DNA of 64,000 nt, taken from the NCBI GenBank assembly GCA_050084515.1, contig CM114271.1:8618001-8682000 (forward strand), in the 5' to 3' direction. Both the position numbers and the translations under genes were made by a program. The notes beneath the pieces were generated by a model. That model saw only the letters and a list, made by a program, of their open reading frames with translations, did no database searches and was not told the origin of the DNA. Positions 6,308 through 64,000 of the stretch are shown here, in pieces. The stretch is from Blasia pusilla (taxonomy: Eukaryota). The first letter of the stretch is position 1. Every line of letters begins with the position of its first letter.

Positions 6308-6310
6308 AAG

Positions 6311-7499: not shown

Positions 7500-8760
7500 C
7501 GCAATGGTTTCAAGTGCAGTAGGCACGATTGAGTTGCACGATTTCATAGCAGAGTTAGGAGTTGGTGTGACTCCCTGCGGGCTTGGAACTCTAGAGAGTT
7601 CAACCCGCTTACAACATGGAACGGTATGTTCCTGCATTTAGAGGGGGCGCCCATGGACAATTTCCACGAGTTCTCTCACAGATATGCACATGAGATCGAG
7701 ACGTGGAGGCTCTACTATGACCCACATTATGTGTCATGGATGGAGCCATTCCCAGATGAGGAGGAGGAGTCAGGAGAGGCTACTTCCTCTTCCACTAGTG
7801 ACATTTTAGGAGGGGTCACTTGCACGGGAGCAGTTGCACCGTCTAGTGGGGTTCGTCCCAGGTTCAACCCTGTGGTTGAGTTTTTTGTTGAGTTGAGGGC
7901 GAGCTACCACGGGGTACGGACGGAGAAGTTGCGGAGCATCCACGACTTCCAGAGGTGCCCGGGTGAGAGTTTGTGTGAGGCTTACACTTGCTTGCGCCGA
8001 TTGATCAACATCACTCAGGGGGTGACAGAGGCTCATGCTATCCAGTCGTGGTACGCGATGCTTGACCGGACCCTACGGACACGGGTGCGGGAGGGGGTGC
8101 TTCTTATAAACACCTCCCCTACATTGAGAGATTTTTTTAGGACCTCCGAGAACATTGAGCGCAACATGGCGGAGGAGAGCGTAGCCACCATGGATTCTGG
8201 GCGAGAGTAGTAACGATTGCCTGCACTACCTATGCAGCAACGTGGACTCCGAGATAGGTTGACTGTGGCACCACGAGCTCAAGAAGGATACCGGGGGGCC
8301 GTGCCATAGAGACTTGCGCCTTCACATGCGGCTCTACAGCAGACACCTACTATTACTTGTTGGTCATGTGGTGGAGCCCATCATCAGCGCGATTGCACTC
8401 GTCAGGGTCATGGACGTGTGCCTTAGCATGGAGGAGGAGATGGTGCTGCACCAAGAGGTTATCAGTATGACTATTGTAAGAGGTATGGTCATACACGCAC
8501 CAGGTGTTTCAATTTACATCCTGAGTTACGTCTGGACCGAGAGCAAGTAGTCGGTCCGAGTGGACCTAGAGATCGTAAACCAAGTGATCCCGTTGGGGGA
8601 CGTGGAGTTGGAGTTTCCCGACACGATGGTGGAGCTGCCCGTGGAGGAGGTAGAGTACCACCACCTAGACGTACCGAGGGAGACTCCAGATGTGAGGCTG
8701 GGATGGCTGCTCAGATACAGCAGCTACAGGAGCAGATTGCCATTATGGCATTGAGGTTAC
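7500..8760 (+). pseudogene. gag of B1 with zinc knuckle
   Basis: ORF 7626-8210 has a retrotransposon-gag-like segment (FQRCPGESLCEAYTCLRRL). CCHC knuckle CWSCGGAHHQRDC at ~8358-8396 and a second degenerate knuckle at ~8465-8510. Homologous to 59358-59965. Confidence 0.85.
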
Positions 8761-9328
8761 TCAATGCCGGATCCGAGGCATCGATATCATATGGAGCGGC
8801 CAGAGATCTGGAGGATCCAAGTTGGATGTGCGGGGTTGCCTAGATGGAGGCAGCCGTAGTTGTGATGGGTGGAGCAACGGCAGAGTTGGATCCATAACGA
8901 GGGGAAGCCAAGAAACATACTAGGCTTCCTCAGTCTTTCACGTTGTCTGAGGCGATGAGGACCCCATCGATGGGTCTTGATCAGAGTTCCTGGAGAGTTG
9001 GTGATGTTGTTGGTGTGCAGGCACGAAGGGCGATGGGAGAAGCAAGTTCAACGACTCCTATTGTTGATGCTTAGGAGGGGCATGTGTCGAGCACGTTGTT
9101 AGGGGCCGCCACCGTTGTGTACCGCACTCCTTTATTTTCTACTTCCGATGTTATGACGTTGGGGGTACGCCCGCCGAGGCTTTTTGGCTGGCCGCTTCAC
9201 TATGTGAGCGCGGATTTGGAGTTCTCGCATCACGTTTAGAGGTGATTGTAGAGGAGGTGATGGACTTGCCCTTGGAGTTGATGCTCGGGTAGTCCACGTT
9301 AGATTCATGGTAGGATTCGGCTGCTAGG

Positions 9329-9720
9329 ATGGCGGAGATGCCCACTAGACCCGCAATAGAGCGTGCCATGGCTTCTCCTGGTGTTGTCTTGCTAGATAAC
9401 CGAGGAGCGGTCTTGCAATTGGTGAGTCTCGGAGGTAGAGCTTTTAGTCCGGAGCGCGTCTTGTTGGATTCAGGAGCGCAATCCCTGATGTTGGGGAAAG
9501 CGTCATTCAGAGGATTGGGCTTGACGAGAGCCGATGTGGAGCGTTGTCCATTCCAGATATAGACTTCCTTGGGTGGAGCGAGTACCACACATTATATCAC
9601 CCGACAAGAGTTCATGGTGAAGATTCGCCCAGGACATCCTACAGATGAGTCCATGGTGCGAGCCAAGGCGATAGTGACTGATGCAGAGTCCTACAACGTC
9701 TTGGTTGGTGGAGGAGTGAA
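9329..9720 (+). pseudogene. Aspartic protease of B1
   Basis: VLLDSGAQSLMLG active site and downstream YNVLVG; homologous to 62350-62760. Confidence 0.85.
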
Positions 9721-9789
9721 GAACCCAAGGTAGCATGGAGTGCTACGATGACACCCTTGGATACCACACCCATTGTGTGGTGTATCCCG

Positions 9790-10003
9790 GAGGAGGGTAT
9801 TTGAGTGTTAGATCTCTTTGGAGGGATTAGCACCCGGTTAGCCGCTATTTTGCAGGTAGAAAAGCGAGTGCACCAGTATCTATATGTGGAGAGTGATGAT
9901 GTTGCAAGGCGTGTCTCACTACGACATGTGGCAGAGTTATGCCTACATTTTCCCAACTTATTATCTGCGTCCGCGGTACAGGGGTACCAGAGTTCCCTAC
10001 CGA
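9790..10003 (+). pseudogene. C5 DNA methyltransferase domain of B1, N-terminal part (motifs I-II)
   Basis: VLDLFGGIS (SAM-binding motif I) and YLYVESDDVARRV; collinear with 63160-63360. Confidence 0.85.
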
Positions 10004-12364
10004 GACCAAAGCGCGGCAGGGTCAATTTCGAAACACCCTCGGAACCAGAACCCACAATTCAAGAGGACTCCGACGAGACGCCTCGTGCTAGCGATCACCG
10101 TCCTGCATTTTGTCTCATGTCCCAGACAGCCAACGACATGGTGTGGTTCCTGAATTTAGCTGTCCCAGTCATGAATCAACTTCAACATGTTCTCCACCTG
10201 GAAAACACAACGATGGTGGACGAGTATTTACAAGCCCTTGATGACCTCAACTGTAGGGCCCAAGCTTCGTCAGAGAACAAAGCACAACGCAAAGTGGCGG
10301 AACAAAATCTTCACCTGTGGGATCAAGAACTCGAAGACACGAAGTCCACGCTTCGCAGAGTTCAAAGCGACTTGGTCCAGAGTCAGTACGAAGCACGGAA
10401 CACACGCCAATGGGAGAGCTTGGCGATTAACCTAGAGTGTGGAGCTGATCAATTAGCTTCGCAGGTCAAGGAAGCTTCGCAACTTATTCAACAATATCGA
10501 CACCAGATGCATCGTGTTAGCAATGAATTCAAGAAATTGGCCACACAACATGCTCAATCTACGAAATTGCTTCAAGAACATCAAGAAACGAACAGAGACT
10601 TAGTGGCGTAGTGGTCAGAGGCTACAGGGAGGATCGTTGTCTTGGAGGCAGAACAGAAGCTACTCAACAAAGTACACTTAGATCCAGAAGATGTCAAGGA
10701 GTTAGTCGACGAAGCAAGCAAGAATTTTGAACAACAGATGAGCGAAGAGATTGACTATGTCAACAAACATTGGAAGCGCCAATTCGACAACCATACGAAG
10801 TCTCTCCCGGAAGTTGTTCCCAACCTCTCAATTACTTTTGAAGAAATACCATTATTTACTCCATTTGATGTCTTAGTCCAGAACAAAGTATTAGGAAGTA
10901 AACTAGTTGTTAATAAATCACGAGAAAGAATGCGCAATCACACCCCCAACATTATCAACAAACCTTCAACTATTCACGGTGGTTTTGCGCCTACATCTGA
11001 GTTTGATAGTTTAGAGGATACTTTTATGGAGTTAGAAGAAACATCCTGATGTGTTCGCCGGGGCGGCTCACATTTGAGGGAGCGGGTATGTGATACCCAT
11101 AATTTTGTACTTTTGAAGAAATATATCTTTTTATTCAACGAAGACTCTTGTACTTTATGATTTTGATTATTTATTATTATGAGGAGGAATGAGTAAGATT
11201 AAAGTGAATTACGAAGCTCCAAGGACAAGGCAGAGAGATAGAAAATCAAGGATTTGCCTAAGAGGAGAGGAGAATAGAATAACGAAGTCTCAAGACCCAG
11301 CAAGAAGCTTCGGAACTATAACGAAGCTCAACGAAGCTCTGTCTACAAAGTGCTTTGCTTTATAAAGAAGCATAATGATGCAGGAAGAAGAAGAGAAAGA
11401 AGTACTTCGCTCTTGTACGAAGCACCTGGAACCCGAACAAAGAATGAAGAGCTTCGTCTTCTGATCAGGAGAAAGAGCTTCCTCCTCAAGCGAACCAAAA
11501 GAGGTCCAGACTTAGCAGCAAAGCGAAGCTAAGATTGACAGTGATTTCAAGCGACACATAGTTAGAACAGTTAGAATAGGAAGAGACGCAACCCTTTGTA
11601 TCAATTTGGTAGTTATGACTATTTTGTTCTGCAAATTCATAGGGATCATAGGAAAAGCAAAGAGCACCATAGATCTAGGTAGTTACAAAAGTTGAAGAGA
11701 CACCAGCTTCATCAAGAACGTTTCGAATCTTTGGATCACTCCTCCTTCAAGGAGTATTTAAGAAAAATAGAAGTAGCTATCATTATCATTCTCTTACGAA
11801 GTCCTCATGCTGTAGGAATGGTCCGAGCAAGGGAGTAGTACCCTCTCGAGCTTGTATACACTTTGAAGCTTTCTCATTCTTGATGGAGTAGTAAAGCAAT
11901 CATTCATTCATTCTGATGTGCGATGTTTATGTCTGAGTATTCTTTTTGGGTCTATAGAGTGAAGAGTGAATGAGGCGAACCTTTCTCATCAATGGAATAA
12001 TCAACATAAAGATTGTAGGAAATTTGTTTGACAGAGAGTAGCCTGCCGAGACGGATTGAGTTCCGAAAGTAGGAGAAGCCAGCTTTCATGTTGAGGTCTC
12101 TGTGAGGTTTCTTGATATCGAGAGGAAATCTACCTGAGCATGCTGTCAATTCCACTAGAGAGAATTGAGAAAATAAACTTTGGTACTAAGAAAGATCTGA
12201 AGATATTGATACGACATTGAATATAAATCATACACATTTAAATACACCTATTACAACATAATTGTAATTTTGAACTCTCTTTTCATCAAAAAATGATCCT
12301 CCTGGGGATCGAACTCAGTAAACGATTGTAAAATAGAAACTCTTATACATTACATATAGCTACA
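10004..12364 (+). mobile_element. LTR retrotransposon family C, 3' fragment (coiled-coil extra ORF, PPT, LTR) inside the B1 methyltransferase
   Basis: Abrupt switch out of B sequence near 10004; Q/E/K-rich ORF to 11049 with one stop; purine tract GAGGGAGCGGG just before the LTR at 11089. Confidence 0.8.
11089..12364 (+). repeat. Family C LTR
   Basis: TGTGATACCC...ATAGCTACA; highly similar inverted copy at 38849-40094 and a fragment at 57508. Confidence 0.92.
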
Positions 12365-12384
12365 AACTTTTTTGTTGTCGCGGG

Positions 12385-13111
12385 TTGGCTGACACTTGGA
12401 CCAGGTTGATTTGGGAGATGTTGAGGATCTTACGATAGTTGCAGGAGCACATGTCTCCTTCTGGAGAATGTGCCGATCTTAGGAGACTCCAGGTAACGGA
12501 TGGTGACAAGTGCTCATCAGGTGCGTGCCTGGATTGGCCCAAAAATGTTATTGCATGTGGCAAGTATAGGTTCTAGAGCCCATCGCCCGCATCTATGGTG
12601 GACCAACTTGATGCCCCATGCAGTGTTACGAAGGACGTATGCGAGAGTGGAGCGCCCCTCCCATTTGTTAGTGGATTCCATTCTGGATCCAGGTCATCGC
12701 TCACAGGCAGTGAGGCATGATGATCGACCACCGTTGACTGTGGTCAACAGGATAGGCAAGCCGCAGGCAGCCTTTCCCACATTTGTGAGTTTTCTCGCTT
12801 CCTATGCATACAAGGAGGCCGGTCTTGGCTTGGTTTGGGATGACCAAGTTCAAAGGTTGGTGGAGCCCACCGCCAATGAGAGAGAGCGGGCGGTGGGATT
12901 TCCCATAGGAGTGACGGCAGTACCGTCAGTATCAGAGGCATCACGATGCCATGTCTTGGGTCAGGCGATGGACATCAACTGCTTGACATGGATCTTCAGC
13001 TTGGGAGTGGCTGAGCAGCGTCAGATGAGATCACGACAGATCACATTGGTTGCGTTGGTGAGCCCCATGCCTACCAAGACGGTGGAGGTAGTGGCTGGGG
13101 GCGAGACCTGA
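12385..13111 (+). pseudogene. C5 DNA methyltransferase domain of B1, C-terminal part (motifs VI, VIII, IX, X)
   Basis: LLENVP near 12460, SIGSRAHRPHLWWTNL, EPTANERERAVGFPIGVT and SRCHVLGQAMDINCL. These match the DNMT3-family pattern ENV / AHRARYFWGNL / EMERVFGFP..YT / RQRLLGRSW. Confidence 0.88.
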
Positions 13112-13309
13112 GGAGATCGACACACCAAGGGAGATTGGGAGAGACACCCTTGGACTTCTTGGGATGTTTTGCAAGTACGCCAGGAGATGATAGTCACAAC
13201 ATCATGCGTGGTTTTGAGCACTGCATGTGGAGGAGATCAGAGTTTGTAGTTGGCAATAGGAGAGCGGCCGAGTGTTGTTGTTCGAGAAGGGGTTGCACCA
13301 TAGCAACCA

Positions 13310-16300
13310 TTGATATCCGCGTCGGAGAGTCCTACCGTAGTCACGATGGAGACTTGGGAGCGAGATATGGGCCCTAAGCTCACAAGAGGAGAGCGGCGCC
13401 GGATACATCAATTCCTCATGAGTTGTAGGAGCTGCTTTGCATTTAGCATGGAGGATTTGGGTACGTTGAAAGGACCGGGGATCCGCATTGAGTTGTCGAG
13501 TGATACGCCGATCTTTCGGAGACCCTATAAGTACAGTGATATGGAAAGGGCTCTATTCAGAGTAGGAGCCAGGACTAGTGGAGATGTTGCATGGGGAGTA
13601 TGCATTTGCCATTGTCATGCCCGCCAATAAGGATGTACATGGCAACTAGATGGATAGGCGACTGTGTAGGGATTACTGACCTATCAATTGGCAAAAGAAG
13701 TCCAATAGGTATGCCATGCCCACCGTTGAGGAGATCTTTGATGCGATTGGTCACGCAAAGGTCTTCAGTTCATTGGATTTGCGAGCTGGATACCATCAGT
13801 TGCTTATCAGATTGGAGGACAAGCAGAAGACAGCATTTTGGGGCATCGATCCTCACGGGAAAGATTGTTTGTACCAGTGGCGGTTCTTACCATTTGGGTT
13901 AAAGAACGCCTCGACGGAGTTTCAAAGGGTCATGGATAGAATCTTGGATGGTGTGGATTTTGCTGTGTGTTATATTGATGACATTATAGTCTTTGGCGCC
14001 ACGGTTGAGGAGCATGAGCAACGATTGCAATTACATGGGCTGAAGCTACATCCAGGCAAGTGCAAGTTCTTCTACGACCTGATTGAGTACTTGGGTCATA
14101 CGATATACCCAGGGGGCCTTGGTGTTCAGCAGACAAAGGTAGAGGCTATCTCACGCATTCCATGCCCTACAGATGTGAGCCGTGCTCGCGCATTCATGGG
14201 ATTGGTGAACTTCTATCGGTGGTACGTCAAGGGATTCACTTCGATTGTGCAGCCGCTAACCTTGCTGACCAAGGTGGATCACAAGTGGCACTGGGCGGAT
14301 AAGCAAGAGCAAGCATTTCAGTTGCTCAAGGACAAGTTGACGTCTGCGCCCATCTTGAGGAGACCGATCACGGGGCGTCCTTTCCATTTGCACATAGATT
14401 GGAGCATGTTGGGGCTTGAAACAGTGCTCACCCAGCATGATGATGAGGGTAGAGAGTTCATGGTGGCTTACGCTAACTGCTCAAACAACGCTGTAGAGGC
14501 AAAGTACAGCTCGTATGAGGGTGAGTGCTTGGATGTAGTGTGGGCTGTCGCACATTTCAGGTGGTACTTATTCGGAAACCCCTTTACCATCATCACTAAT
14601 CATCAACCACTGAAGTGGTTGATAGAGTCCGACAAGCTTACAGGGAAGCTTGTGAAATGGGCTCTGTTGTTGCACGAGTATGATTTTCAGGTGGTACATA
14701 GACTTGGGACGCTTAACCAGAATGCAGATAGATTGAGTCGTAACCCGTGCCCGAGTTAGCGAGATGCGACTGGAGCTCGATGGCATGGAGAGAGTGATGA
14801 GGAGTTAGTGCCAGGATGGCACGCGACAGCCTATTTAGGCATGTTGGCTATGGAGAGCCAGAGTGTGGAGACTTCAATGGCAAGGTCTAGTGGAGAGTCC
14901 TTGGATCCTGAGGCTAGTGAGGAGAGCACATGTGGCCGAGATATTCATGATGATGGAGTAGTCTTGGAGTACCATCGTACTCGCAGCGTTGTGAGCACCG
15001 TGGGTGCTAGAGAGCGGGACCGGATCCTACAGCGGGCCAGACGGTTCCGTTGGGAGGGGACACATGTTTTGAGGATTTGGGAGGATGGCACTGTACGCAT
15101 AGTGCCGCAACCTTTGTAGAGAGCACAACAAGTGCAGCATGCCCAGGAGGAGTTGGGTCACTTTGGGGTGAAGCGGACATACAGCTTGCTCTAGATTCTG
15201 TATTGGTGGAGAGGCATGCAGACTGACGTTCAGCAGTTTGTTGCCAGATGCATGGTGTGTGATCGGGTCCGAGCATCGTTGAATGCTCCGATTCCACAGT
15301 TGCATCCATTACCTATCATGGGCTTAGGGTATAGATGGAGTTTGGATTTTGCAGGACCTTTGCCTTTGACGGAGCGTCACAATCGTTATGTGTTGGTGAT
15401 GGTTGAGCACTTCTCGAAGTGAATCGAGTTGGTTGCATTTCCTGACAAAGTGAGTGAGAGAGTAGCTTATGCCTTCCTTGATAGAGTGATGAGTCATTAT
15501 GGCACACCGGCTGAGGTGTTCATAGATCATGGTACCGAGTTTCATGGTGAGTTCCACGCCTTGTGTGATCAGGCGATGATCGACCACCACACAACTTCAT
15601 GAGATCATCTTGAGGCGGATGGATAAGCAGAGAGAGTTGTGCAGACGGTGAAGAGGGGTTTACGCAAGTATGGCTTGCAAAGAGGTCACGTAGGAGATTG
15701 GGATCTCCAATTGCCATGGTTGGCGATGGGATACATATTTACCAGGCACACATCCTTAGCATCTTTTTCCCCGTACTTGCTACTTTGTGGTCGAGAGCCA
15801 GATTTACCTGCGGCCATTTGTCGAGATGCTGGTGAGGTGCTGGACCTTTATGACCTAGATGTATGGATCCGAGCATGTTCTCAGAGGGCTAAGTTGTTTC
15901 GGAGAGTGATGCCCATGGCGTTTGAGACCTTGGCGATTGTGCATCATGGGGATACGTTGAGGTATGCAACTATTTGGGGTGGTGGTTATCAACCAACCAT
16001 TTAGAGGTTTCATCAAGGAGATTATGTCTACTTGCAGCAGACGGCACCCACGACGTTGGATGTGACTGCAGGGCGCACTATCTTGAGAGTGCGTGACGTT
16101 TTGCCATCTGGTATTCTCTTGCTGGAGGGACACGATGGTATGGTATGGAAGGACCATGTGCCTAATTTTGCGCCATGTCACCTTCCTAACATTGATGGTA
16201 CAGTAGATCCGAGCTTAGCAGTAGTTCCTATAGGCTTGCGTTGTATGTTGTGTGGTTCTGCTCGTGGTGCGGCCACAATGCTAGTATGTGATGGATGTTC

Positions 16301-16382
16301 GAGAGGTTGGCATATGGCGTGTCTGAAGCCACCTCTCATTGGGGTTCCTCGGGGACAATGGATGTGTCCCAGATGTACATAG
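13310..16382 (+). pseudogene. RT, RNase H, integrase and C-terminal PHD finger of B1
   Basis: SLDLRAGYHQ, LPFGLKNA, YIDD; RNase H YSSYEGEC and NQNADRLSR; integrase H2C2 (LGHFG...CMVC) and WSLDFAGP; C4HC3 PHD at the end. Confidence 0.93.
16242..16376 (+). other. PHD finger at the integrase C-terminus of B1
   Basis: CMLC-x10-VCDGC-RGWHMAC-LKPPL..VPRGQWMCPRC, a complete C4HC3 ligand set. Confidence 0.92.
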
Positions 16383-16696: not shown

Positions 16697-16698
16697 AT

Positions 16699-20852: not shown

Positions 20853-22170
20853 TTGGTAAAATTGGACCGCTCCGACGAATCTCCTCATCCCCTTAACATT
20901 GGAAGGCGGTTCCCATTCAGAAATCGCGCTTACCTTCTCCATGTTTGGACTCAATCCATATGCACTAACCACATGCCTCAAAGACTTAATCTTTGTCAAA
21001 CACTCTTGTCCGCATTCGCATACAGCTTGTTCGCCCTGAGTTTCTCAAACACTGTCTTCAAATGTCGAGCGTGCTCCTCTAGTGTTTTCAAATAGATGAG
21101 TATGTCATCTATGTAGATGATCATATACTCATCTGTCTCCTTATAAAAGAAGGAGTTCATCAAAGTGGTGAACGTCGGAGGCACATTACATAAACCAAAA
21201 GGCATTGCCACAAACTTGAACGAATCGTATCTCGTCTTATACGCAGTCTTCTCTACATCCACTTCCGCAATCCGAATATGATAATATCATGATTTCAGGT
21301 CAATCCTACTAAAATACTTGGCACCTAACAATCGATTAAAGAGGTCATCCATCCTCGGAAGAGGATAGTTTTTCCTTATCGTCATTTAATTCATCGCCCG
21401 ATAATCAACACAGAGTTTCAACTTTCCATCCTTCTTCTTCACAAAGAGAACGGATGCTCCATAAGGTGACTTGCTAGTTTGGATGTAACCCCTTTCTAAG
21501 AGTTTATCCAACTGTTTCTTCAACTCTGTAAGTTCCCCTTGATTCAACCTATATCGTGCCTTTGAAGATGGTCGAGATCCGGGTGTCACCTCTATCTTAT
21601 GATCAACCGCCCTATGTGGTGGCAACTTAGTCGGAAGCTCCTTAGTAAAAACATCATCAAATTCTCTCAAAAATCTCTTGAGTGGTTCAGGGATTTCCCT
21701 TGAAGTTGAGTGATGATGTCTACATCTCGCGCTTGCGTCATCCTCTACTTGTCTCATCAAGCTAAGAAAGCCTTCCTCTTATTTGGTCGAACTCGTTCTT
21801 GTGATGGCATTCACCAACTCCGTCTTCCTAGGAACCTCACGAACCAATCTGACGTGCATCCGTTTGCCGTTTACCAAGACGCTCAACCTTAAAGGTATTT
21901 GCCTCAGTTCCACCTCATATGCATCTAAGAATGTGTTCCCCAAGACTCCATTGATTCCGTCCATATCGCAGACTGTGAAATTCTCCTTTAACTCGAATAC
22001 TCCGCATCCCACAACTAGTCTTAAAACCAACTTTGAGGTCTAGTGGGACTTGCCTCCCGCAAAACCTACCCTAATGGGTTTGTCTGCCTTAGTGATTGGA
22101 AATCCCAACGCCTTCACGATTCTCAGGCTCAAGAAGGAGAGCAAAGCACTTGTATTAACGAGCAACATCA
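20853..22170 (-). mobile_element. Ty3/Gypsy family E (chromovirus-like), protease-RT part
   Basis: DHKIEVTPGS...SPYGASVLFVKKKDGKLKLCVDYRAMN, MPFGLCN, YIDD. The protease reading joins 41652 across the CACTA insertion. Confidence 0.88.
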
Positions 22171-22654: not shown

Positions 22655-27720
<5,066 letters not shown>

Positions 27721-33990: not shown

Positions 33991-34925
33991 TAGTATATTT
34001 CATGCTCCACTCGGACGAGTTGCACATTTACGTCATTCTTGGACTCTGGTTGGACTGCTAGGGTGTTGACATACTTTACCAACAACCGCGGGACCTTGGG
34101 CTCCGGGCATTCCACTGTAGTGTGCCCGCCCTTCTTGCAATTTCCGCACAATGGATTGAGTCCTACTGGCCGCTTTGGAGTTGGGCAATTATGAGCCTAG
34201 TGGTCAGCTGCCCCGTAATTATAACAACAATTCCTTTTTATGGGTGGCGTGAAGGCTACGGCGCCCATAATCTGTCTCAGGGGTCTTTGTTCCCTGTATT
34301 CTAGAGGCACATATCAGGTGATCCAACTTCGTCCGAGATTAGATGGTGGCACAGCTTGGATTGCATAGCACCCTTCCCACTGTTCGGGTTCATACCACCC
34401 TTCTTCTGTAGTTGGATCTTCCTGGATCCAACGTAAATCCCTCTGATTATGACATTCCTGAGCAGTATGCCTTTGGGTTCCGCAAGTATTGCACCAGATG
34501 TTGGGCCTCATCAAACCTGGTCGTCTTCAGGAATCCTTCTGGGCCGTAAGATGTACCTTTAATTCCGCCTTTTTTTTACTTAGCTATTCAATGGCAGACT
34601 TGCCTGCCTTCCTCGCTGTCCCCCTCATTGGACTTTCCGACCGTTGGGGAAGGTGCTTTGTTGGTCGGGTTTTCCTTCCGTGCTTGGGAGAGTGGTGGTG
34701 CGTGATTTTTCTTTTCCGCTTAGATTTTAAATATTTTTCGGAGTCATAGAGGATTCCGTGTGTGTGGAAGACGCTTCGTCCTTCAACGAAGCACTAGTTT
34801 GCGAATAACCTCGTCATTGGTGATGCCATCTTCGTATTTTACGGGACTTCTCTTAGGCCTCGTACGCCTCTACGGAGGCTATGACTGCTTCCAAGGAATC
34901 TTGTTGGCCTCGCCGGCATTACCGG
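33991..34925 (-). mobile_element. Family A gag fragment (A3)
   Basis: RPNIWCNTCGTQRHTAQEC and EEGWYEPEQWEG; homologous to ~4500-5330 and 46950-47800. Confidence 0.85.
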
Positions 34926-38140: not shown

Positions 38141-40094
38141 TCAATCTAGTTGATTTGGTCGGCTCCTCGTCCCCCGAGTCCCCAAAGGAGTTCTAGGTTA
38201 ACTCTTTGTACGACTGCAAACTGGGAGGAGACGTGGTGGGGAGCGTATTCTTGTCCCTCTTCTTGCTCTTGGGCTTCGTGCGAAGACAAAGACTGGGAGA
38301 CACCCCAGGCGGTCTCCAAGACGGGTGATCTTCTTGTTGCTTACTACGTCGATCAGCTTGCTGATCTTGCGAAGAGGTCCAGGAGACTTCCATGAGTCCC
38401 TTATGGGATTCGGGAGCTTACTTCCGCACCCACGGTCGCCACAAGGTAGGGGTCCATGGAGGGAAATTAAATCTTCCTAATTCCTAAGCCTACAGGCGTG
38501 TGCAGGTGCTCTTAATCTTCTTGCCAAGTTTTCCTCCCATAAAGAGAAGTACCCGATCATCACCAAGTACAACTGACGTTCATGTGCGAAGCACCGTTCG
38601 GCGATTGGTTTTTTGACAATACTAATTAATTGTTCTATCTTTTCTAGCACCAATGCAGAAAACCGGTTGTTATCTTCTTTCATCCATTGTCTGAGGGGGA
38701 TAGCTAGAGATAGCAGATAGTCTTTAGTAAGAACTAGTTGGTTGGGTCTTCTAGGATACGAGGCTTCTTTCCCCGCTCCTGGATTCCCCATGTGTCTCTC
38801 TCCCTCTTCAGAAAAGCTTATAATCCCCGGCAGCGGCGCCAAAAAGTTTGTTGCTATATGTAATGTATAAGAGTTTCTATTTTACAGTCATTTAATAAGT
38901 TCGATCCCCAAGAGGATCATTCTTTGATGAAAAGAGAGTTCGAAATTACAATTCTGTTGTAATAGTTGTATTTAAATGTGTATGAGTTCTATTCAATGTC
39001 TTATCAATATGTTCGGATCTTTCTTAGTACCAAGGGATCTTTTCTCAATTCTCTCTAATGGAATTAACAGCATGCTCAGGTAGATTTCCTCTCGATATCA
39101 AGAAACCTCACAGAGATCTCAACATGAAAGCTGGCTTCTCCTACTTTCGGAACTCAATCCGTCTCGGCAGGCTACTCTATGTCAAACATATTTCCTACAA
39201 TCTTTATGTTGATTATTCCATTGATGAGAAAGGTTCGCCTGATTCACTCTTCACTCTGCAGACCCAAAAAGAATACTCAGACATAAGCATCGCACATCAG
39301 AATGAATGAATGATTGCTTTACTACTCCATCAAGAATGAGAAAGCTTCAAAGTGTATACAAGCTCGAGAGGATACTACTCCCTTGCTCGGACCATTCCTA
39401 CAGCATGAGGACTTCGTAAGAGAATGATGATTATGGCTTATGTTTTGCTTCTTAAATACTCGCTGGAGTAGGAGTGATCCAAAGATTCGAAGCGTTCTTG
39501 ATGAACCTGGTGTCTCTTCAGCATTTGTAACTACCTAGATCTATGGTTCTCTTAGATTTTCCTACGATCCCTGTGAATCCGCATAACAAAACTGTCCTAA
39601 CTACCTATCTGATACAAAGGGTCGCGCCCTTTCCTAGTCTAACTGTTCTAACGGTATGACACTTGAAATCACTGTCATTCTTAGCTTCGCTTCATTGACT
39701 TCTTGAGGACAAAGCACTCCATTCTTTGTTCTTGTTTAAGGTGCTTCGTGCTTCGCACTTCGTACAAGAGCAAAGTACTTCTTTCTCTTATTCTTCCTGC
39801 TTTGTTATGCCTCGTTATATAGCAAAGCACTTTGTAGACAGAGCTTCGTTAAGCTTCGTTATCGTTCTCAAGCTTCTTGATGGGTCTTGAAACTTCGTTA
39901 TTTTATTCTCCTCTCCTCTTAGGCAAATCCTTGATTTTCTATCCCTCTGCCTTGTCCTTGGAGCTTCTTGATTCACTTTAATCTTACTCATTCCTCCTCA
40001 TAATAATAAATAATAATCAAAATCATAATGTACAAGAGTCTTTATTGAATAAAAAAAAATATTTCTTCAAAAGTACAAAATTTTGGGTATCACA
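38141..40094 (-). mobile_element. Family C 5' fragment: LTR 38849-40094, PBS, start of internal ORF
   Basis: The LTR is an inverted copy of 11089-12364; PBS TGGCGCCGCTGCCGGGGA at 38824-38841 is Athila-like; ORF 38477-38842 follows. Confidence 0.88.
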
Positions 40095-46805: not shown

Positions 46806-49800
46806 CTAAATTCAATATAACAACATTACTTTCAAGATGATAGATTTTACTGATCAACCTATTAATTTCCTCCCACACTAGGAAAAATAAGATAAAGAGA
46901 GTCGTCCTAAATATTCACATCCAAGGAATGTGATATCAGGATCATAGATATAGAGGGCAGCGTGACTCATTAGCACCCGTCATTGCCTCTACCGGAGCTT
47001 ACTAGGCCTCAGAAAAATCCAGGAGGACGCGCAAGAAGAGACATTATCGGAAGAGGACAAACTCTTCATCAGAGGAGTCTGAGTCTTCGTCTGACTCCTC
47101 ACATATCTTGTCAGGAAGCACTAGCAGTGAAGACTCAGAGTCTGAGGAAGACTCTAAGGGCAAAAAGAAGAAGAAATCAAGATGCCTTAGACACTCTTCG
47201 TCCTTGGGAAAAGGACGTAGGGATCAGAGCATCGCAAGTTGATGAGTCCTGCTCGTAAGACAGAGAAGGATGGGGAAAAGTTGGCCATCAGTGAGTTGAA
47301 AAAACAAATGGCCGATTTAAAAGTACATTTGGCGGCTCAAAAAGACCCCTAAGGTCTTATGTGGCCTAATATATGATGTACTGCTTGTGGGACTCAGGGG
47401 CATATAGTGCCAGAGTGCCCACTGAAACAAGATTTACGTTGGATGGAAGAAGAATCCTCAAAGGAGGAGGGGTGGTATGAAGCCGACCAGTAGGAAGGAT
47501 GTTATGCGGTTCAATTAGTTCTTGAGGCTAGTACTTCTTGCAGCTCAATCTCGAGATACGTGCCGCCAAAATTTGGAGAGCAAAGGCCTATACGACAAAT
47601 CATTGGACCCGCAGCGTTCACCCCACCAATTAAGAGGAATTATTGTTAAAATTACGGGGCAATCGATAATTGGGCAAACAATGGTCTTAACCCAAAATGA
47701 CCCGTGGGTTTGAATCCCCTATGTGGAAATTGTAAGAAGGGAGGACATACTGTAGTAGAATGTCCATAGCCTCAAGTTCCCTGGTTCTTTATCAAATATG
47801 TCACCACCCCACCGTCCCCCACCGAAGCCAATAATGATGTTAATGTGCAGCTAGTACGTGTGGAAGATATTACCTCACCCAGGAAGGCAAGGAAGGTGAC
47901 AATTGTAGAAGAAGGCCCAAAAATGAAGATTGAAGAAGAGTCCTCCGATTGGCCCGAAGACGTTCTCAACAAGGTCTTCACAATGAATATCAGGTCCAAG
48001 TCTAAGAAGAAGACTGTGAGGATGAAGACCCCAGAGTCTTCATCTTCGCAAAGTGTTTCGTCTACAAAGAAAGCGAGTGAGACATTTTGAGCATGGAAAG
48101 CTGTTCTAAAAGGCAAGGAGGACCCGACTGTTGATTGCAATCATCCGAAGTACTTCTACCCAAAAGTTGAGAAGCATGTCCGTAATCAAGTTCACAAAGA
48201 ACAAGCAAGTGGAGTCTTCGCACATGGCGTCTAACCCCATCACAAAGAAGGAAAAGTAGAGACCACTGTCGCTTCACCCTTGGTGATGGAAGCTTACGAC
48301 TTATTGAAATATTTGGCTACCAGTCCGGCAAAGATATCTTTATTGCAATTATTCATGGATAACCCCATTTATGGGAAAATACTCCACCAGTGGAAGGTTG
48401 GACGTAAGAAGGAGCGTGCAAAGAAGCTCCCGAGGTTGAAGACCTGGGTGCCCTGGAAGTGGAAGTAGAGATTGAAGGATAGACCATCAAAAAGGTCCCT
48501 ATAGATTCTGGAAGCAGGATCAACATCATGACAGAGCAAACTACTCAAGCCTTGGGTTACACTAAATATGAACCTACAGATAAATACTTACGCTTTCTTG
48601 ACCAGTCTTGCAAGCGACCTTTGGGGCAACTCACTCAAATCCCCAACATGATAGGGGGAGTGTTATTTCTCTTGGACTATCTTGTCCTTCAGCCTTTGAC
48701 AGTCACCGGTTACCCCCTGCTTATTGGGAGACTGTGGCTCTATGGAGCTCAGGATAACACGGATTGGAAGAGACAAAGATTAACTTTCCAAGCACCGTAC
48801 AGTACCCCAAAGAAGTTGGTGAAATTATCATGGAAATCTCGGCCTTCTCAAGGAGAGACACCGACCACAGATGAGGGGTATACCTCATATCAAGACCAGA
48901 CAGTTGACACAGAGTCCTCGTCCTATGTGTGCTACTTGGAGTGTTATGAGATAGATAAAGAGTACCTACAACTAGAACAAAGTAAGTCCTTTCTAGGAGA
49001 GGAGCCATCTGGGCTCACTACATATCAGTTCACATAGAAGATGGTGCAGGAGAAAGACTACGAAGAAATCCTTATCACTGACACTAAGGCTTTGCGTCTA
49101 TCCACAGATTTTTCTGCGTCTGAACTTTCACAATATAAAACTTTGCTTTCGAAGTACCTTGTTGTGTTTGCCCACACCATGCATGAGATGAGAGGAGTGC
49201 GAGCCAAGTATGGAGAACATAGAATTGATTTGAAACCTGACGCACTTCTTGTGCAAATAGGTGAGTATAGGTTAAACCCAAAGTACTCTTTAATGGTCAA
49301 AGACGAAATTGATGAGAGGTTGGAAGCTGGAGTCATCTATCCGGTGCTCAATAGTGAATGGGTATCCCCCATAGTCATTGTTCCGAAGAAGAAGACATGG
49401 AAGATCCGAGTATGTCAAGATTCTAGGAAGCTTCATGTGGCCACCCTTAAGGATCACCACCCCTTGCCCTTTACGGACACTATTTTAGATAAGGTGGTCG
49501 GCCATGAAGGCTATACCTTCTTGGACGGGTATTCTCGTTACAATCAAGTATCTATCAGAGAGAGGGACCGAGCCCTGACTACCTTCACCACGGATTGGGG
49601 TACTTTTGCCTATCGAGTGATGCCTTTTGGGTTGTGTAATGCCCTGGCCACTTTCCAAAGAAAGATGATTGCTATCTTCCAAGACTATTTACGAAGATTC
49701 GTAGAGATCTTCCTATATGACGTTTATGTCTTCAACTCGGCCAAAGATCATTTGTAGAAGTTAGAGCTAACCCTGGCTCGGTGCCGAGAAGTGCAGCTAT

Positions 49801-52030
49801 CGTTGCATCCAGAGAAGTCTTACATTGCCATGGAACAAGGTATCCTATTAGGGCATCAAGTGTTGTCACGCGGTATTGATGTAGGTACGATGAAGGTGGA
49901 GATAATTTTGGAGTTAGAAGCTCCCACAAATCTTTGTGAGCTAAGGGGATTCCTGGGGCATGTGGGGTATTACCGCCGGTTCATCAAGGATTATGCGCTA
50001 AAGGCGAAGCCTCTAACAAACCTGCTGAAGAAGACCGAGGAATGGGAGTGGTTGCCAGCATGTCAGAGGGCATTTGAGGAGTTGAAGCATGCACTAACAA
50101 CAACTCATGTGTTCCAAGTGTATGTTGACACCTCGTTGTTTGCAATTTTTGTAGTGCTAAGTCAACTAGATGAGAAGAAGAAGGATTACCCTATCTATTA
50201 TGCAGCGTGACAACTTTCAGTCGTAGAGCAGAAGTACACTACTATGGAGAGGGAATCCTTGGGCATGGTCTTTTCTCGCAAGAAGTTTCGGCATTACTTG
50301 TTGGGATACCCTTTTTGTTTTTCATGTCGACCATTTTGCGCTTCGTGCCGTGGTGGTCGAAGCAGATTTGTCCGACAGGATTGCCAAGTGGATTCTCTTG
50401 TTACAAGATTTTATATTTGATGTGGTGAAAAGAGCAAGAAGGATCCACACCAATGCGGACTTTCTGTCACGCTTAAGGACGCCAAAGAGCGATCTCACAA
50501 AGACCCTTGAAGACGACTTTCCAGACAAAAAATTGTTCTTGATCAGCGAGGAGGACCTGCAAAGATCTTCATATGAAGACATTCTATGATTTCTAATCAC
50601 TCTTGCTTTTCCAACTCCTATGACAGTAACAGAACGGGCAGTATTCTTGCATAAGGTAGGGCCTTATGAGATCTGCCGTGATGTGTTATTCAAGCTTGGT
50701 GCGGATGGAGAATATAGAAGGTGCTTGGAGAAGGAGGAAGTTTTGCAGGTGATTGCTGCTATGCATTTGGAGTATTCCAGAGGGCATTATGCAGTCAGGA
50801 ATACTGTCAAAAAAATCTAGGCCGCATGCTACTGGTGGCCCACAATGTATCGGGATGTCAAATCCTTCATCCAAAAGTGTGATGCTTGTCAAAGAGCAGG
50901 AAGGCCGACAGTGACTTCTGGTTGGCCTTTGGTGCCTATTCTTCCCCTGGCCCCTTTTGAGAAGTGGGGTATCAATTTTGTGGGTCCTATCTCACCCGCC
51001 ACCCGATAGACACGCCGGAAGTATGTTTTAATCGTTACGGATTATTACACCAAAATGGTGGAAACATTTGCGATGCGAAAGGATGACATTGAGGTAGTGG
51101 ACAAGTTTTTATATGAAATGATTATTACTAGATATGGTTGTCCTCTGGAATTTTTGAGCAACCAGGGAACTCATTTTCTCAACCAGATGGTCAAAGCTTT
51201 GACCGACCACTTCCTAATCAAGCTCCGCAAGACAACCCCGTACAACCCCAAGGCCAATGGATTAACAGAGAAGTCCAATGGGTTGATTTGTAGGATCTTG
51301 AATCGATTGACAGTCACCTATGCATATGATTGGGATACCAAGATTCCTGCTGCACTACGAGCCTATCGCACAATGCATAAAGTAACCACCAAGTACACAC
51401 CATTCTATTTGACATATGGAATTCAACCCCTTGCTCCAATCAAATGGGATGTGCCCACCTACCAAATTATGGAAGAAGAAAGAAACGAAGAAGAGTCGGC
51501 GATCACTGGAAGGAGGAACAAGGACTTGGTTGCAGTGGAGGACGCATGACATCTTGCTCTAGGTCATATGAAGACCGTTTAGCTCCAAAGAAAGGAGCTG
51601 CATGACAAAAACTTGAGATAACAGTCAATACAAAGAGGGGATTTGGTCTTGCTCTATGACAATCGACGCCTTAAATTTCTACGGAAGCTAAAGTTAAATT
51701 GGATGGGACCTCACCAGGTCCTCGAGGTATTTGAAAATGGATCTTTAAAATTAAGAACATCAAGCAGAGAAGCACTACCAACAAGAGTGAATGGCATGCA
51801 TGTGCAAAGATACCACGCACCTGACTACAGGTTGAGGGAGGGGGTAACGAAGAAATCAGGACCAGGGAAGGTCCGACCCCCCAAGAATTGTGAAGAGTCA
51901 TAAGCAACCCAGGATAGGAGTCTTCATCTCCGGTCGTGTTTGCTGGGTCTTCGCAGTCTTGGTCTTTGCACTACCTAAAAAAAAACAACCAAAAACTCGT
52001 AACGAGGAGCACGACCGTTACGTAAAATTG

Positions 52031-57507: not shown

Positions 57508-57687
57508 TATGATACCCATAATTTTGTACTTTTGAAGAAATATATCTTTTTATTCAACGGAGACTCTTGTACTCTATGATTTTGATTATTATTTATTATT
57601 ATGAGGAGGAATGAGTAAGATTAAAGTGAATCAAGAAGCTCCAAGGACAAGGCAGAGAGATAGAAAATAAAGGATTTGCCTAAGAGG
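57508..57687 (+). repeat. 5' fragment of family C LTR
   Basis: Near-identical to 11089-11265. Confidence 0.9.
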
Positions 57688-59185: not shown

Positions 59186-59965
59186 CTTATCTGGTCTCCA
59201 CGAGTCTCGCTCGGACTACTCTACCACCATTTGTATGGAACGTCTTGAAACGCGCCCACGAATATCCCCACCAATGTGTACGTCTTGCTCGAGGGGAGTT
59301 CCTGCTACGCTCGAGTAAGATGTACATATTGGTGGGGATATTTGTGGAACCAATGAGTTGGATGATTTTATGGAGTGTGATAGTTGGTGCGATGCACAAA
59401 GGATGCGAAACTTGCAGAGATTCAACCCCTTTATGGCGTGGAAGAGACTTTTTCAGCATCTAGAGGGCCCTCCCATGGATGATTATCATGAGTCTCGGAT
59501 TCTTCATGAGGCAGAGATCGATGCGTGGAGAATATTTTGGTCTCCAGGATATGTGTCCCTCACAAGGCATGCTATGAATGTTGTGGCGGGTGTCGTAGCA
59601 CCCATTAATTGCACGGAGGAGACACTTGGAGGTATTGTCAATCCAAGTCTTATGAGTGTGACCAGCCGAGTACCACCCACGTTCAACCCGTTGGTTGAGT
59701 TCTTCAGAGAGTTGGGGAGGAACTATTAGGGGGTGAGGACCGACAAGCTGAAGTCGATTCATGAGTTTCAGCAGAGCGGGAAAGACTCTTCAGGAGGCCT
59801 ATGCACGACTCCGACAGTTGATTATAACGACTCAGGGTATGACAGAGGGGCAAGTCGTTCAGTTTTGGTATGTGATGCTAGACCGCGATTGGCGGAAGAG
59901 AGTGCGAGATGCAAATCTCTTATATATTGGTTCAGCTACTCTCAGGTCTGTATTTTTGTTGGCGG

Positions 59966-61150
59966 TGTCGTATAGTAAAATCAGCCAATGTGTTAACTCC
60001 TTCCTCATTAAGTGTTAGATAGAGTTTTATTAGTATTAAGTAAATTAGCTTAGAAAAAGGAAATTCCCATGTTTGAACCTCTTTATGGTGTCTCTTTTAT
60101 GCGTGCCCAACTTTAGGAAAAGAGGTCATAAATAAAAGATGACTTTATAAAAGTAAAGTAGTGAGGTTGGTGCTTTAATAAAAAACAAAAGTAGTCTTGG
60201 TTGGTGACTAGGTTAGTTGGGGTAATTTGGAAAATATCAAGTGAGTAAAAGAGGATATTTTTGGAAGAGATAAGAGGAAATCTACTTGTGTCAAAATGTG
60301 ATTGGCTAAGCCTTGAGAGGTAGCCATGTGGCACAACATAAGATTAGCTCTATTTCGTATTCTTGTGGATCTCTTGTGAGTATATAAAGAAGAGGGACCT
60401 TCCAGGGTTCATCACCTTCTATTTCATATCTTCAGTCTTTCGTGTCACTCTTGAGTGTATGGCTTTGGGATTACTTGCTCTTCCAATGAGTCATAATGAA
60501 AATTTTTGTCATATAAAAAAAGTGAATATTTTGGCTTGTTATTTTCCTAGTGAGAGTGAATTATCCCTCTCGGAAGAATAATTCCTCCAAAGCCCATTCT
60601 TGAGGAGAGTAGAGAATGTCTATCAAGCATGGATAGGGATGGAGCACGAGTTGTGCGCGAATTTCCTTTCCTCAATCATTATCATGTCAAGGTACTCTTT
60701 GTAGATAGGCACTGATTAAGTTGCTATTTAGTTTATCACTTTGGGGAGGCGTTCATGAACCAGGTCATGCAATCCCCAACTCCGGTGATTCTTCCTATGG
60801 TCCGATATGGAAGGACATGGGATTGTACTTTGTTTGTCCTTATATAGCAATCCATGGAAGTCAATAGGCCTTCTCAAGTAGAGTTTAATACTAGTTATGC
60901 TATCTTCCTCGTGTACAAGAATGAAGTAGTTTATAGGGATTTTATAGTTAGGAATTTTGGGAATTCATGTTACAAAGAAGTGATCGCTTCGGCACTTCCA
61001 TTTGTGATACCTGTCGTGAGGGAATGGAGAATATCCATAATAATTTTGTATTGAAAAAGGAGAACTTCTTAGAGAGTTCATCTTGCATCAACCATGTCTG
61101 CCGCAGCTAGAAGGCCCGCCCTTACTTGAAAAAAGGCTCTCAACACAACA
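59966..61150 (+). repeat. Solo LTR of family D inside B2 gag
   Basis: TGTCGTATAG...ACACAACA; flanks GCGG/GCGA; gag reads SVFLLAERIELN when the LTR is removed. Confidence 0.9.
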
Positions 61151-63149
61151 GCGAAGCGTATTGAGCTCAACATACTCGAGGAGAGAGTTTTTACAATTGG
61201 GGCGTCATTTTTTAGGGAGACGACATGAGTGACGGTGTCTCCATGAGTGCAGCAGTGCACTACTCAAGATAGAGTCATGGGACCGAGGGCTACGGGAGGA
61301 TATCGGGAGCCCAGGATCACGACCAATTCAGTCATACGTTGGGCAACAGGGCTCAGGTATTTATTGTTGGACGTGTGGAGGATTACATCATCAGCGAGAT
61401 TATAGACATCAGAGTGGAGTGCAGGCAGCACCATCAGCTGTTTATGAGGCGACATAGGGGAGACCACCCTTACCTCAGTGTGATCATTGCCTGAGGTATG
61501 AGCACACACTTTAGAGATGTTTTGAACTCCATCCCGAGTTGGGCCTAGAGGGACGTCGAGGACGTGGAGGTGGCAGAGGATAAGGTGTATGAGATTGAGG
61601 ACGTGGTGGAGAGAGGATACCACCACATACCAGAGCGAGTGCAGCACTTGCATCACAGGCAGCTTTGGCGAGGATTGTTGAGTTGGAGCAACGCCTTCAG
61701 GCTATGACGGCCGAGCAGGCATCTACATCAGGTGTAGGAGGCGCGTCGACTTCTGAATCTGCTCAGGCCCAGGATACGGCAAGAGATCTATGAGGTATGG
61801 GATTTTTGTGCAACACCGCAGAGGTGGATGCAGATGTAGTGGTTACGAGAGGTACGGTGAGAGCTTCTAAGCCACGAGGATCCGATATGGAGTTGGATCC
61901 CCAAAGGGAAGAAGCTGGCAAGCAGGCTAGACTTCCCCAGTCTTTTAAATTATCATACGCTCTTCGGACCCCATCGATGGTCCCAATACAGCCTTTGAGG
62001 AGTGTTGTTGTTGCAGATGTCGATGCAATTAGAGGAGCAAGTGAGGCGAGTACATCTACCAGGCCTATGCAATATTCGACATGGCCTAGTACTGGCACGT
62101 TACGAGAGATGGCGACGACATTGTGTAGCGTCCCACTATTTACGACCACAATTTTGTTGGTATGTGGAGGTCAACCAAGTGAGGTTTTCCGGTTGGCGGA
62201 GACGCTTTGTGAGAGCAATGAGTTTGGTTCTTCTAGTGTTGAGACTCGCACAGAAGATGTGGCAGAAGTACCCTTGGAGCAAGTGCTCGGGACGAGGACC
62301 ACACAGAGTTGGCATGCAACAGCGGCTAGAGTGGCGGAGTTGCTAGCTAGACCGACCATAGAGCGTGCAACCGTCTCACCATGAGTTTTTGTCTTGGACA
62401 ACCGAGATTGAGTTTTCCAGTTGGTTGGTCCATGCGGAGTCGTGTATCGATTGCAGAGAGTGCTACTTGATTCAGAAGCACAACCCCTTATGTTAAGGAA
62501 GGTGGCATGTGTAGGGATGGGATTGTGGAAGTGTGAGATCACTCCATGTCCATTCCACATTCAGACTTCTTTGGGAGGCACATCCTAGACACAATTCATG
62601 ACTCGAGATGAGATTGCAGTAAGGATTCGGCCTTATCATCCTACGGATAGTGCGATGGTGCGAACGCGAGCGATTGTGACACCGGCCGAGTCTTATGATG
62701 TTTTGGTAGGGGCTACCGTATTGTATCCTCTAGGGTTCACACTTGATTTTTGGGAGGAGACATCCTCCTATCGACCAGGCTGGCAGTCACGTGAGGGACG
62801 AGCCAGTGAGCTACCCGCGCAATTTGCAAGGAGACTTGATGGTTCACTCCGAGGGTCGACCACAACAATTGCTGCTTATTGTGGCACACTATGTTGGCCT
62901 AGAGATATACTAGAGGGCAACGCCAATGCAGAGGATATTCCTGTGGAGGATAGTCCTGAGGAGGGGCATGCGATGACGAGCGTGCCTACATCTGTTGGCG
63001 ACACTTCTTCAGTTTTGTGGGGGACGAGCATGGATTTGCAGAGGAGAGTAGACGAGCTTGTGAGGCAGGCGTGGAGCCAAACCTGTGCTCTAGGAGTGGA
63101 GATGTTGACACCCTTGGACACCACACCGATCATGTGGCAGTATCGCAAG

Positions 63150-64000
63150 AAGGGTGTGCGTATACTAGATCTCTTTGGAGGGATAAGTACAGCATTGGCT
63201 GCATTGTTGCAGGCAAGAGTACGAGTACAACATTACTTGTATGTGGAGAGAGAGATGAGACTGCACGTAGAGTCTCATTATATCATGTGTCGAGACTAGT
63301 CCAACAGTATCCTCAGTTATTGCTAGTGTCTATAGTTAGGGGATATCAACATGTATTACCGGCTGACATTTTGTTGTTGGGGGCGCCATGTGTAGATAGG
63401 GTTGGTCCGATACACTTGGTGGCGGCAAGGTGGCCATGTCAGGGTCATACTTCGGCGAGTCGGGGACTTGGTTTGCAGGACCCAAGGTCGGCCATGTTTT
63501 GGGAGATGTTGCGAGTTCTTTGTCACTTGCAGACTACCCAGCGATGTTCTCCAGCCTACATTTTGGAGAATGTCCCTTTGTTAGGTAACACTCAAGCCCG
63601 AGTGATGGCAAGTGTACATCTGGTGCGGTTTTGGATAGGACCGGCAGTGATGTTGGATGCGGCGAGCATTGGATCGCACGCATACCATCCACGATTGTGG
63701 TGGACGAATCTTTTACCATCTGTGTTGCTGAGGCCGGCTTATGATGGAGTCCACAGACCATCACTACTTACAGTGGATGGTCTAATCTTGTATCCACGTC
63801 GGCGATCTCATGTTGTTACTCATGATGATGTACCACCGTTGGCAGTGGCCAATCGGGTGGGCCAGCAGAGGGGAGCATTGCCTACGTTGGTGAGTTTTCC
63901 GGCATCTCATGCTTTTTGTCAAGGAGGACCAGGCATGATATGGGATAAGCATGCAGGTACACTAGTGGAGTCTTACGCCGACGAGCTAGAGCAAGCTATG
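63150..64000 (+). pseudogene. DNMT3-like C5 DNA methyltransferase domain of B2
   Basis: ILDLFGGIS (63162), one frameshift in the GA run near 63250, then open to the window end: IHLVAARWPCQG (Cys codon 63437-63439), GLQDPRSAMFWE, YILENVP (ENV 63566-63574), LDAASIGSHAYHPRLWWTNL. Confidence 0.92.

Follow-up and report, generated by a model that had tools for sequence, protein, structure and literature searches.

Positions 62598-64000 of a 64,000-nucleotide stretch of Blasia pusilla DNA (hereafter the window; GenBank assembly GCA_050084515.1, contig CM114271.1, positions 8,618,001 to 8,682,000 of the forward strand) very probably hold the protease-to-methyltransferase stretch of a dead Ty3/Gypsy-type retrotransposon copy, here termed B2. 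The same high confidence covers this explanation as a whole, in which the element bears a DNMT3-like C5 cytosine methyltransferase (MTase) between its protease (PR) and reverse transcriptase (RT). Homology, conserved motifs and synonymous bias between subfamilies together support, at the level of sequence, the conclusion that the MTase was maintained by purifying selection in transposing lineages. The B2 family is a further member of the published Gypsy-DNMT3 kind, and its selection signature repeats that published for Klebsormidium. The finding itself is modest, B2 being a fossil copy. Retrotransposons that carry an MTase nonetheless invert the view of methylation as a host weapon, and so far they have been found mainly in Symbiodinium and one charophyte. 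The window adds a genome of bryophyte type, in which the Gypsy-DNMT3 kind forms a long-lived family with multiple copies. Its relatives in the model liverwort Marchantia polymorpha, for which genetics and methylome tools exist, make the element's gain from the enzyme experimentally approachable.

Copy B2 and its relatives

B2 extends from about 59343 to beyond the end of the window. The copy is cut by the window edge, and only gag, PR and MTase precede it. Its parts are:

59343..59964, + strand: N-terminal part of B2 gag (tblastn of Marchantia P0003 residues 18-229, 47-52% identity)
59965..61072, unstranded: nested repeat within B2 gag, foreign to the element (blastn copies elsewhere in the window)
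61073..62729, + strand: C-terminus of B2 gag and aspartic protease, frame 0 (relatives have Asp_protease Pfam matches at the homologous place)
62730..63068, + strand: protease-MTase linker of ~110 amino acids (aa), deleted in copy B1, which skips from 9727 to 9733 (P0003 alignment)
63069..63254, + strand: N-terminal part of the MTase, frame 0, with motif I (alignments)
63246..63256, + strand: single frame change from 0 to 2 in a GA-rich run (ends of P0003 alignment segments and sequence)
63248..64000, + strand: MTase in frame 2, with motifs IV, VI and VIII, the target-recognition stretch and the start of motif IX (Calypogeia P0001 match; PF00145)

An earlier note on this DNA had described an open reading frame (ORF) at 62598-63299 running from the protease C-terminus straight into motif I, and, after one frameshift, a frame open to 64000 with WPCQG, ENV and motif VIII. 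Both descriptions are borne out by the ORF listing and the P0003 alignment. The listing gives a stop-to-stop frame at 62589-63299 (236 aa, first ATG at 62598) and a second frame at 62960-64000, open up to the window end. Frame 0 holds the protease C-terminus (AIVTPAESYDVLVGATVLYPLGFTLDFW, also given as AESYDVLVGATVLYPLGF...), then the linker, then motif I as ILDLFGGIST, with DLFGG at 63168-63182. P0003 aligns to 61326-63254 in frame 0 and to 63248-64000 in frame 2 (tblastn). There is exactly one frame change inside the span that the note had described, at the GA-rich run where the P0003 segments stop (63254) and resume (63248), and it leads to the out-of-frame stop at 63297-99. Frame 2 contains WPCQG (63431-63445), ENV (63566-63574) and motif VIII (GSHAYHPRLWWTNL, ~63671-63712). 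The window edge falls within motif IX, where B2 reads ELEQAM against the ERERAMGF of relatives. Motifs I, IV and VI of B2 stand in the canonical C5-MTase order and align to the same motifs of DNMT3A. The Pfam profile PF00145 gives 21.9 bits on frame 2 (E 1.3e-4), against a gathering cut-off of 22; the intact relatives P0003 (35.6 bits) and P0017 (44.1 bits) score above it.

The frame 2 translation matches 21 proteins: 14 from Marchantia polymorpha, one from Calypogeia fissa, one from Sphagnum fallax and five unnamed. The best match is Calypogeia fissa P0001 (E 2.9e-85, 64% identity), and the Marchantia proteins, at 60-64%, carry PF00145 together with RVT and RNase H domains. A second copy in the window, B1 (7542-16379), and the relatives share the order Gag(CCHC), PR, DNMT, RT, RNase H (RH), integrase (INT) and PHD (tblastn of P0003, P0005 and P0021; Pfam). 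The family is abundant in liverworts and other bryophytes (Marchantia, Calypogeia, Sphagnum). In the MTase tree, B1 and B2 are separate long branches, not resolved as sisters, in a clade with Calypogeia, Marchantia and metagenome copies (support 100/99).

As judged by its sequence, the MTase is DNMT3-like, a ranking that comes from a structure-database search. Among solved structures, DNMT3A/3B/3C came first (8e-11 to 1e-7), followed by DRM (4e-7 to 2e-4), M.HaeIII/M.HhaI and then DNMT2. Motifs I to X are colinear with DNMT3 and not rearranged as in DRM. A protein atlas search with the domain returned only generic DNA-methylase clusters (0.93). A search of sequencing runs listed three DNA data sets with small shares (0.05-0.06) of one organism and none of RNA, which bears on neither expression nor host.

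Nested repeats make the window a mosaic, a setting in which the remains of a host gene of the DNMT3 family, or of a domesticated derivative, could lie beside retrotransposon debris. Several Marchantia gene models with the domain are annotated as hypothetical proteins, and one as a DNA (cytosine-5) methyltransferase. However, the run of gag, protease, linker and MTase, all read in one direction, is colinear with that of single polyproteins in Marchantia, Calypogeia and Klebsormidium. B1 and 71 non-redundant metagenome loci show these junctions again and have RT downstream in the same frame; introns are unnecessary, and there are many diverged copies per genome. The colinearity with polyproteins and the recurrent junctions with RT downstream led us to reject the host-gene explanation, which has next to no probability left.

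B2 is a dead copy. Upstream of the MTase it has in-frame stops at 62382-84 (TGA), 62409-11 (TGA) and 62586-88 (TAG), its protease active site has changed from DSG to DSE (62469-62477), and its gag is split by the 1.1-kb nested repeat into 59343-59964 and a part from 61073 onward. Nine relatives share 84 invariant MTase columns, of which twelve are changed in B2. The changes include Gly-to-Arg at 63428, just before WPCQ, and His-to-Tyr in motif VIII at 63683; close to motif I, the last Gly of GGISTG is Ala. The earlier note had stated that PCQ and ENV are kept in B2; this is correct, and it is true of B2 only, B1 having lost the PCQ stretch. Their presence in B2 is a sign of partial decay, not of selection on B2 or of its function. 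After insertion, both copies decayed neutrally through stops, a frameshift and nested insertions, with substitutions of the Gly-to-Arg, Gly-to-Glu, His-to-Tyr and Arg-to-Gln types as part of that decay. The CpG observed/expected ratio is 0.57 for the whole window and 0.68 for B2.

Purifying selection on the methyltransferase

Two copies that drift neutrally are expected to show a ratio of nonsynonymous to synonymous divergence (dN/dS) near 1. Between B1 and B2, 61 of 240 MTase codons are identical, 73 differ only synonymously and 106 change the amino acid. The NG86 method gives dN 0.359, dS 1.85 and dN/dS 0.19 (bootstrap 0.10-0.31), a rough value only, as dS is saturated (proportion of synonymous differences, pS, 0.69). 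The protease part behaves alike: among 275 codons, 66 are identical, 76 synonymous-only and 133 amino-acid-changing, for dN 0.421, dS 2.06 and dN/dS 0.21 (bootstrap 0.11-0.33). Maximum-likelihood dS ran to saturation (12-16), and the B1-B2 estimates rest on NG86, raw proportions and a control in shifted reading frames. The silent codon pairs that the earlier note had quoted are all present in the codon alignment, both around motif I (ATT/ATA, AGC/AGT, ACC/ACA, GCC/GCT) and near PT.VSF (CCC/CCT, ACA/ACG, TCC/TCT). The B1-B2 ratio lies far below the neutral expectation, which places most of the divergence between the copies in transposing lineages constrained at the protein level.

Protein-guided alignment of saturated sequences could create such a bias artificially, leaving the MTase to drift as passenger DNA. 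The pS values of 0.69-0.71 are near the saturation limit of 0.75, maximum-likelihood dS runs away and the alignments derive from tblastn. However, in the two other frames these aligned bases yield a pN/pS of 0.77 (+1) and 1.39 (+2), against 0.41 in the true frame, which largely refutes an artefact. The MTase differences at codon positions 1/2/3 number 89/59/132 over 242 codons, an excess at the third position over the second that also speaks against the artefact. Moreover, the aligned blocks are nearly gap-free, separate comparisons with 12 metagenome copies yield 0.11-0.16 wherever dS can be used, and the catalytic residues are near-invariant in 159 proteins. The artefact was rejected on the shifted-frame control and the codon-position bias, and we consider it highly improbable. 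The synonymous-biased divergence proposed in the earlier note, at a dN/dS of ~0.19 and with a clean control, stands.

A metagenome scan extended the comparison to 80 loci (L001-L080) with DNA of relatives, or 71 after removal of nine near-identical ones (L007, L017, L035, L039, L045, L057, L059, L060 and L070). At dS 0.1-0.3, the median pairwise NG86 ratio was 0.58 for the MTase (851 pairs), 0.63 for the protease (938) and 0.43 for RT (199). At dS 1.5-3, the medians fell to 0.23 (149 pairs), 0.34 (178) and 0.11 (22), respectively. In 236 matched locus pairs, the MTase median was 0.58 and that of RT 0.41, with the MTase higher in 90%. Thus, among the metagenome copies, MTase constraint is similar to that of the protease and weaker than that of RT, and the MTase-versus-RT comparison proposed in the earlier note finds both below 1. 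Family-wide, ratios are below 1 in MTase, protease and RT alike. Against the 12 metagenome copies nearest by dN, B2 gave 0.11-0.16 in the ten with usable dS; one comparison was undefined and one had a dS of 26. A ratio near 1 would have spoken for drift; the values found were 0.19 between B1 and B2 and 0.11-0.16 between B2 and these copies.

The catalytic residues follow the same pattern. Among 57 non-redundant DNA copies, the majority residue is present at the motif IV Cys in 96%, at the motif VI Glu in 86% and at the motif VI Asn in 98%, compared with a mean of 79% over all columns. The domain was found in 176 database proteins, and 159 of them contain 300 aa of it or more; 158 of these 159 retain the motif IV Cys, and likewise 158 the motif VI Glu-Asn. 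In the 21 closest proteins, PCQ is present in 18 (deleted in the other three) and ENV in 19. Common loss of the catalytic Cys or Glu, which was looked for as a sign against selection, is not what these proteins show. With dN/dS far from 1 and catalytic residues so widely kept, the earlier claim of purifying selection on the MTase across subfamilies is upheld, and conservation suggests that the constraint was catalytically relevant.

A constraint of this kind need not involve DNA methylation. The selection on the MTase may be real but concern a function other than catalysis, for instance nucleic-acid binding or host-factor recruitment, with no methylation of DNA. Replacement of Pro by Glu beside the catalytic Cys is unusual for active C5 methyltransferases, and algal relatives have Glu for the Pro of Pro-Cys, with ECQ at motif IV in 75 of the 176 domain proteins. 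According to de Mendoza et al. (2018; PMC5890265), the Gypsy DNMT domain of Klebsormidium nitens produced no methylation in yeast; human DNMT3B was likewise negative in that assay, and the authors call the result inconclusive. The streptophyte type has six motifs like those of active DNMT3 enzymes (DLFGG, WPCQG, ENV, RxRLWWTN, ERERAMGF and LGQAMD), and binding alone would not require the Cys and Glu-Asn each kept in 158 of 159 proteins. A purely non-catalytic role is unlikely, although it has a better claim than either an alignment artefact or a host gene.

Several observations weigh against the explanation as a whole. Stops occur in every one of the 23 metagenome loci that have a best match over 327 or more of the 340 MTase residues, so dN/dS there mixes selection with decay; the close-pair MTase ratio of ~0.58 (dS 0.1-0.3) is such a mixture, with post-insertion decay. 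Evidence for intact members of the family comes from database ORFs, at the protein level. The saturation of dS between B1 and B2 has been given above, and the protein-guided codon alignments may favour amino-acid matches, an effect that the shifted-frame control argues is small. No terminal repeats of B1 were found by direct-repeat search or by blastn of 4500-7600 against 16300-19500. Such long terminal repeats may be hidden by decay or nested insertions. The yeast result for the K. nitens domain belongs here as well, and MTase catalysis in the bryophyte lineage is inferred from sequence. Set against the ratios and the residue counts, these points leave maintenance of a probably catalytic MTase by purifying selection as the supported reading.

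Metagenome copies L001-L080 are all decayed, with 0.9-1.4 stops per 100 codons. Their lesions are mostly C-to-T or G-to-A transitions, seen most often as Gln-to-stop, Arg-to-Gln/Cys/His, Ala-to-Val and Thr-to-Met changes. This pattern matches that expected for deamination of methylated cytosines.

Known DNMT-carrying elements and a conserved stop codon

The closest published system is KnitGypsy-Dnmt3 of K. nitens, described by de Mendoza et al. (PMC5890265) as a Dnmt3-type domain in a Gypsy Pol with key residues conserved and Ka/Ks <0.2. An MTase profile search found a K. nitens protein, KFL_009030040 (P0171; E 3e-66), with the order DNMT, RT, RH, INT. We assume it to be one of the published copies, a further point of caution. 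P0171 is colinear with Marchantia P0005, at 30% identity over 591 aa for PR-DNMT (E 5e-54) and 38% over 554 aa for RT-RH (E 5e-101). The likenesses to the bryophyte elements are a non-rearranged Dnmt3-type MTase inside a Gypsy polyprotein, conserved catalytic residues, Ka/Ks below ~0.2 between copies, and the colinearity of P0171 with liverwort proteins over PR, DNMT, RT and RH. The ratios for B1 versus B2 (0.19) and B2 versus metagenome copies (0.11-0.16) agree with the low Ka/Ks published for KnitGypsy-Dnmt3; the metagenome median is 0.23 at dS 1.5-3, but 0.58 among close, decayed copies. In contrast, K. nitens falls outside the bryophyte clade in the tree, the closest proteins are those of Calypogeia and Marchantia at ~64% identity, and neither the bryophyte in-frame stop between DNMT and RT nor the C-terminal PHD of B1 is seen in the partial P0171. 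DIRS-like repeats are reported for the K. nitens element in the same paper (PMC5890265), and a 2026 preprint mentions 'streptophytes (Gypsy-DNMT3)' (10.64898/2026.05.21.726589). No published description of DNMT-carrying retrotransposons from bryophytes or liverworts was found in a search that left supplements outside its reach, and PMC11982613 contained nothing that bears on the subject; such sequences may already figure in the DNMT trees of PMC5890265 and PMC12344493.

Animal DNMT3A/3B are the best solved-structure match (E 8e-11) and share the motif order I, IV, VI, VIII, IX, X, and the element MTase has a DNMT3-like motif VIII (AHRxRxxWxNL) and motif X (LGxxxxV/L). Identity is only ~25-30% over motifs I to VIII, however, and the element MTase lacks PWWP and ADD, has a longer stretch between motifs VIII and IX, and sits in a retrotransposon polyprotein. 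Retrotransposon-borne DNMTs under purifying selection are also described from Symbiodinium, as SymbioDIRS-Dnmt3 and SymbioLINE-Dnmt, in PMC5890265. These belong instead to the DIRS or LINE class, reside in another host lineage and were acquired independently, and SymbioDIRS-Dnmt3 methylates CG de novo in yeast (PMC5890265).

Green-algal Gypsy polyproteins (Haematococcus lacustris, Chlamydomonas eustigma, Monoraphidium neglectum, Chromochloris) have a homologous MTase at 35-40% identity, RT and INT homologous to those of B1 at 39-44%, and a PHD finger after the integrase. They differ in their order, PR, RT, RH, DNMT, INT, PHD as against PR, DNMT, RT in bryophytes, and in having ECQ rather than PCQ at motif IV and mostly ENT or ENA at motif VI. 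An MTase of the green-algal type between RNase H and integrase also occurs in many metagenome contigs; P0021, P0025, P0027 and P0043 are among the proteins of this type.

The bryophyte elements also have an in-frame stop between MTase and RT. Of 28 metagenome loci with an RT-leader anchor, 23 have it at one and the same position (TAG in 18, TAA in 5), and in all 23 it is followed by CAACCCATG (CAA CCC ATG), as at 3243 in L001 and 2686 in L004. B1 reads TAG CAA CCA at 13301-13312. Among database ORFs, sixteen that fall into four groups stop 76-141 aa past the MTase domain, with group-specific tails. Plant viruses have a leaky-stop motif, UAG-CAR-YYA, which the context of the conserved stop resembles. 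Read from sequence in this way, the conserved stop suggests a Gag-PR-DNMT first product and a readthrough RT-RH-INT-PHD product.

Bryophyte Gypsy-DNMT3 may thus be a distinct, undescribed variant, with the MTase at the C-terminus of a Gag-PR-DNMT frame that ends at a leaky-type TAG/TAA CAA CCN. The MTase+PHD lineage would then span chlorophytes to liverworts, with relocation of the MTase (from RH/INT to PR/RT) and a Glu/Pro swap beside the catalytic Cys. This proposal is tentative, and we place it a little below what could be called probable. If true, the element would produce as much of the enzyme as of its structural proteins, and its particles could carry the enzyme along to methylate cDNA.

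By analogy with DNMT3 and with the proposal that retrotransposon DNMTs self-methylate retrotranscribed DNA (PMC5890265), the protease of a live element would free a DNMT3-like enzyme from the Gag-PR-DNMT product. The freed enzyme might methylate cytosines of new cDNA or of the integration site. A new copy methylated in this way could look like DNA methylated by the host, or have its chromatin state set. The integrase-linked PHD finger, again by analogy, may read histone tails to choose targets.

Copy B1 and other repeats in the window

B1 is decayed further than B2, with several in-frame stops and the PR-MTase linker lost. It is also without ~34 aa of the MTase, including the motif IV PCQ, in whose place stand ~2.4 kb of foreign DNA (10003 to ~12375). 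Its parts are:

7542..10002, + strand: B1 gag, protease and N-terminal part of the MTase (motif I), with several in-frame stops (tblastn/alignment)
10003..12375, unstranded: foreign DNA in B1, standing for ~34 aa that include motif IV (11089-12372 matches 38841-40094 at 88%)
12376..13168, + strand: C-terminal part of the B1 MTase, with ENV and motifs VIII, IX and X (alignments)
13301..13303, + strand: in-frame TAG, then CAA CCA, at the conserved MTase/RT stop (same stop in 23 of 28 metagenome loci)
13340..16379, + strand: B1 RT, RNase H, integrase and C-terminal PHD finger (Pfam; tblastn of P0005 and P0021)

Pfam matches on B1 include RVT_1 (1.7e-20), RT_RNaseH (1.5e-27) and PHD (6.8e-12). B1 and the relatives show motif IX as ERERAxGF and motif X as LGQAMD. 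The match of the foreign stretch at 11089-12372 to 38841-40094 is on the opposite strand, and 11091-11265 also matches 57510-57687 at 96% over 178 bases; the insert is thus another dispersed repeat. Just downstream of the B1 PHD finger lies a 124-base direct repeat (16573-16696 and 17216-17339; 93% identity, 643 bases apart).

The ~1.1-kb repeat nested in B2 gag is present in three copies of 83-90% identity (blastn): 59965-61072, 34925-36119 (90%) and 19664-20850 (83%, opposite strand). It gave no protein-family match; a non-autonomous element and a solo terminal repeat are both conceivable. The window as a whole is a transposon graveyard. At least three more Gypsy-type RT/INT remnants without MTase, one RVT_1 plus zf-RVT (LINE-like) frame and one DUF4100 frame together occupy 824-3140 (-), 20811-21682 (-), 25841-27411 (+), 49098-51438 (+) and 17674-18462 (-).

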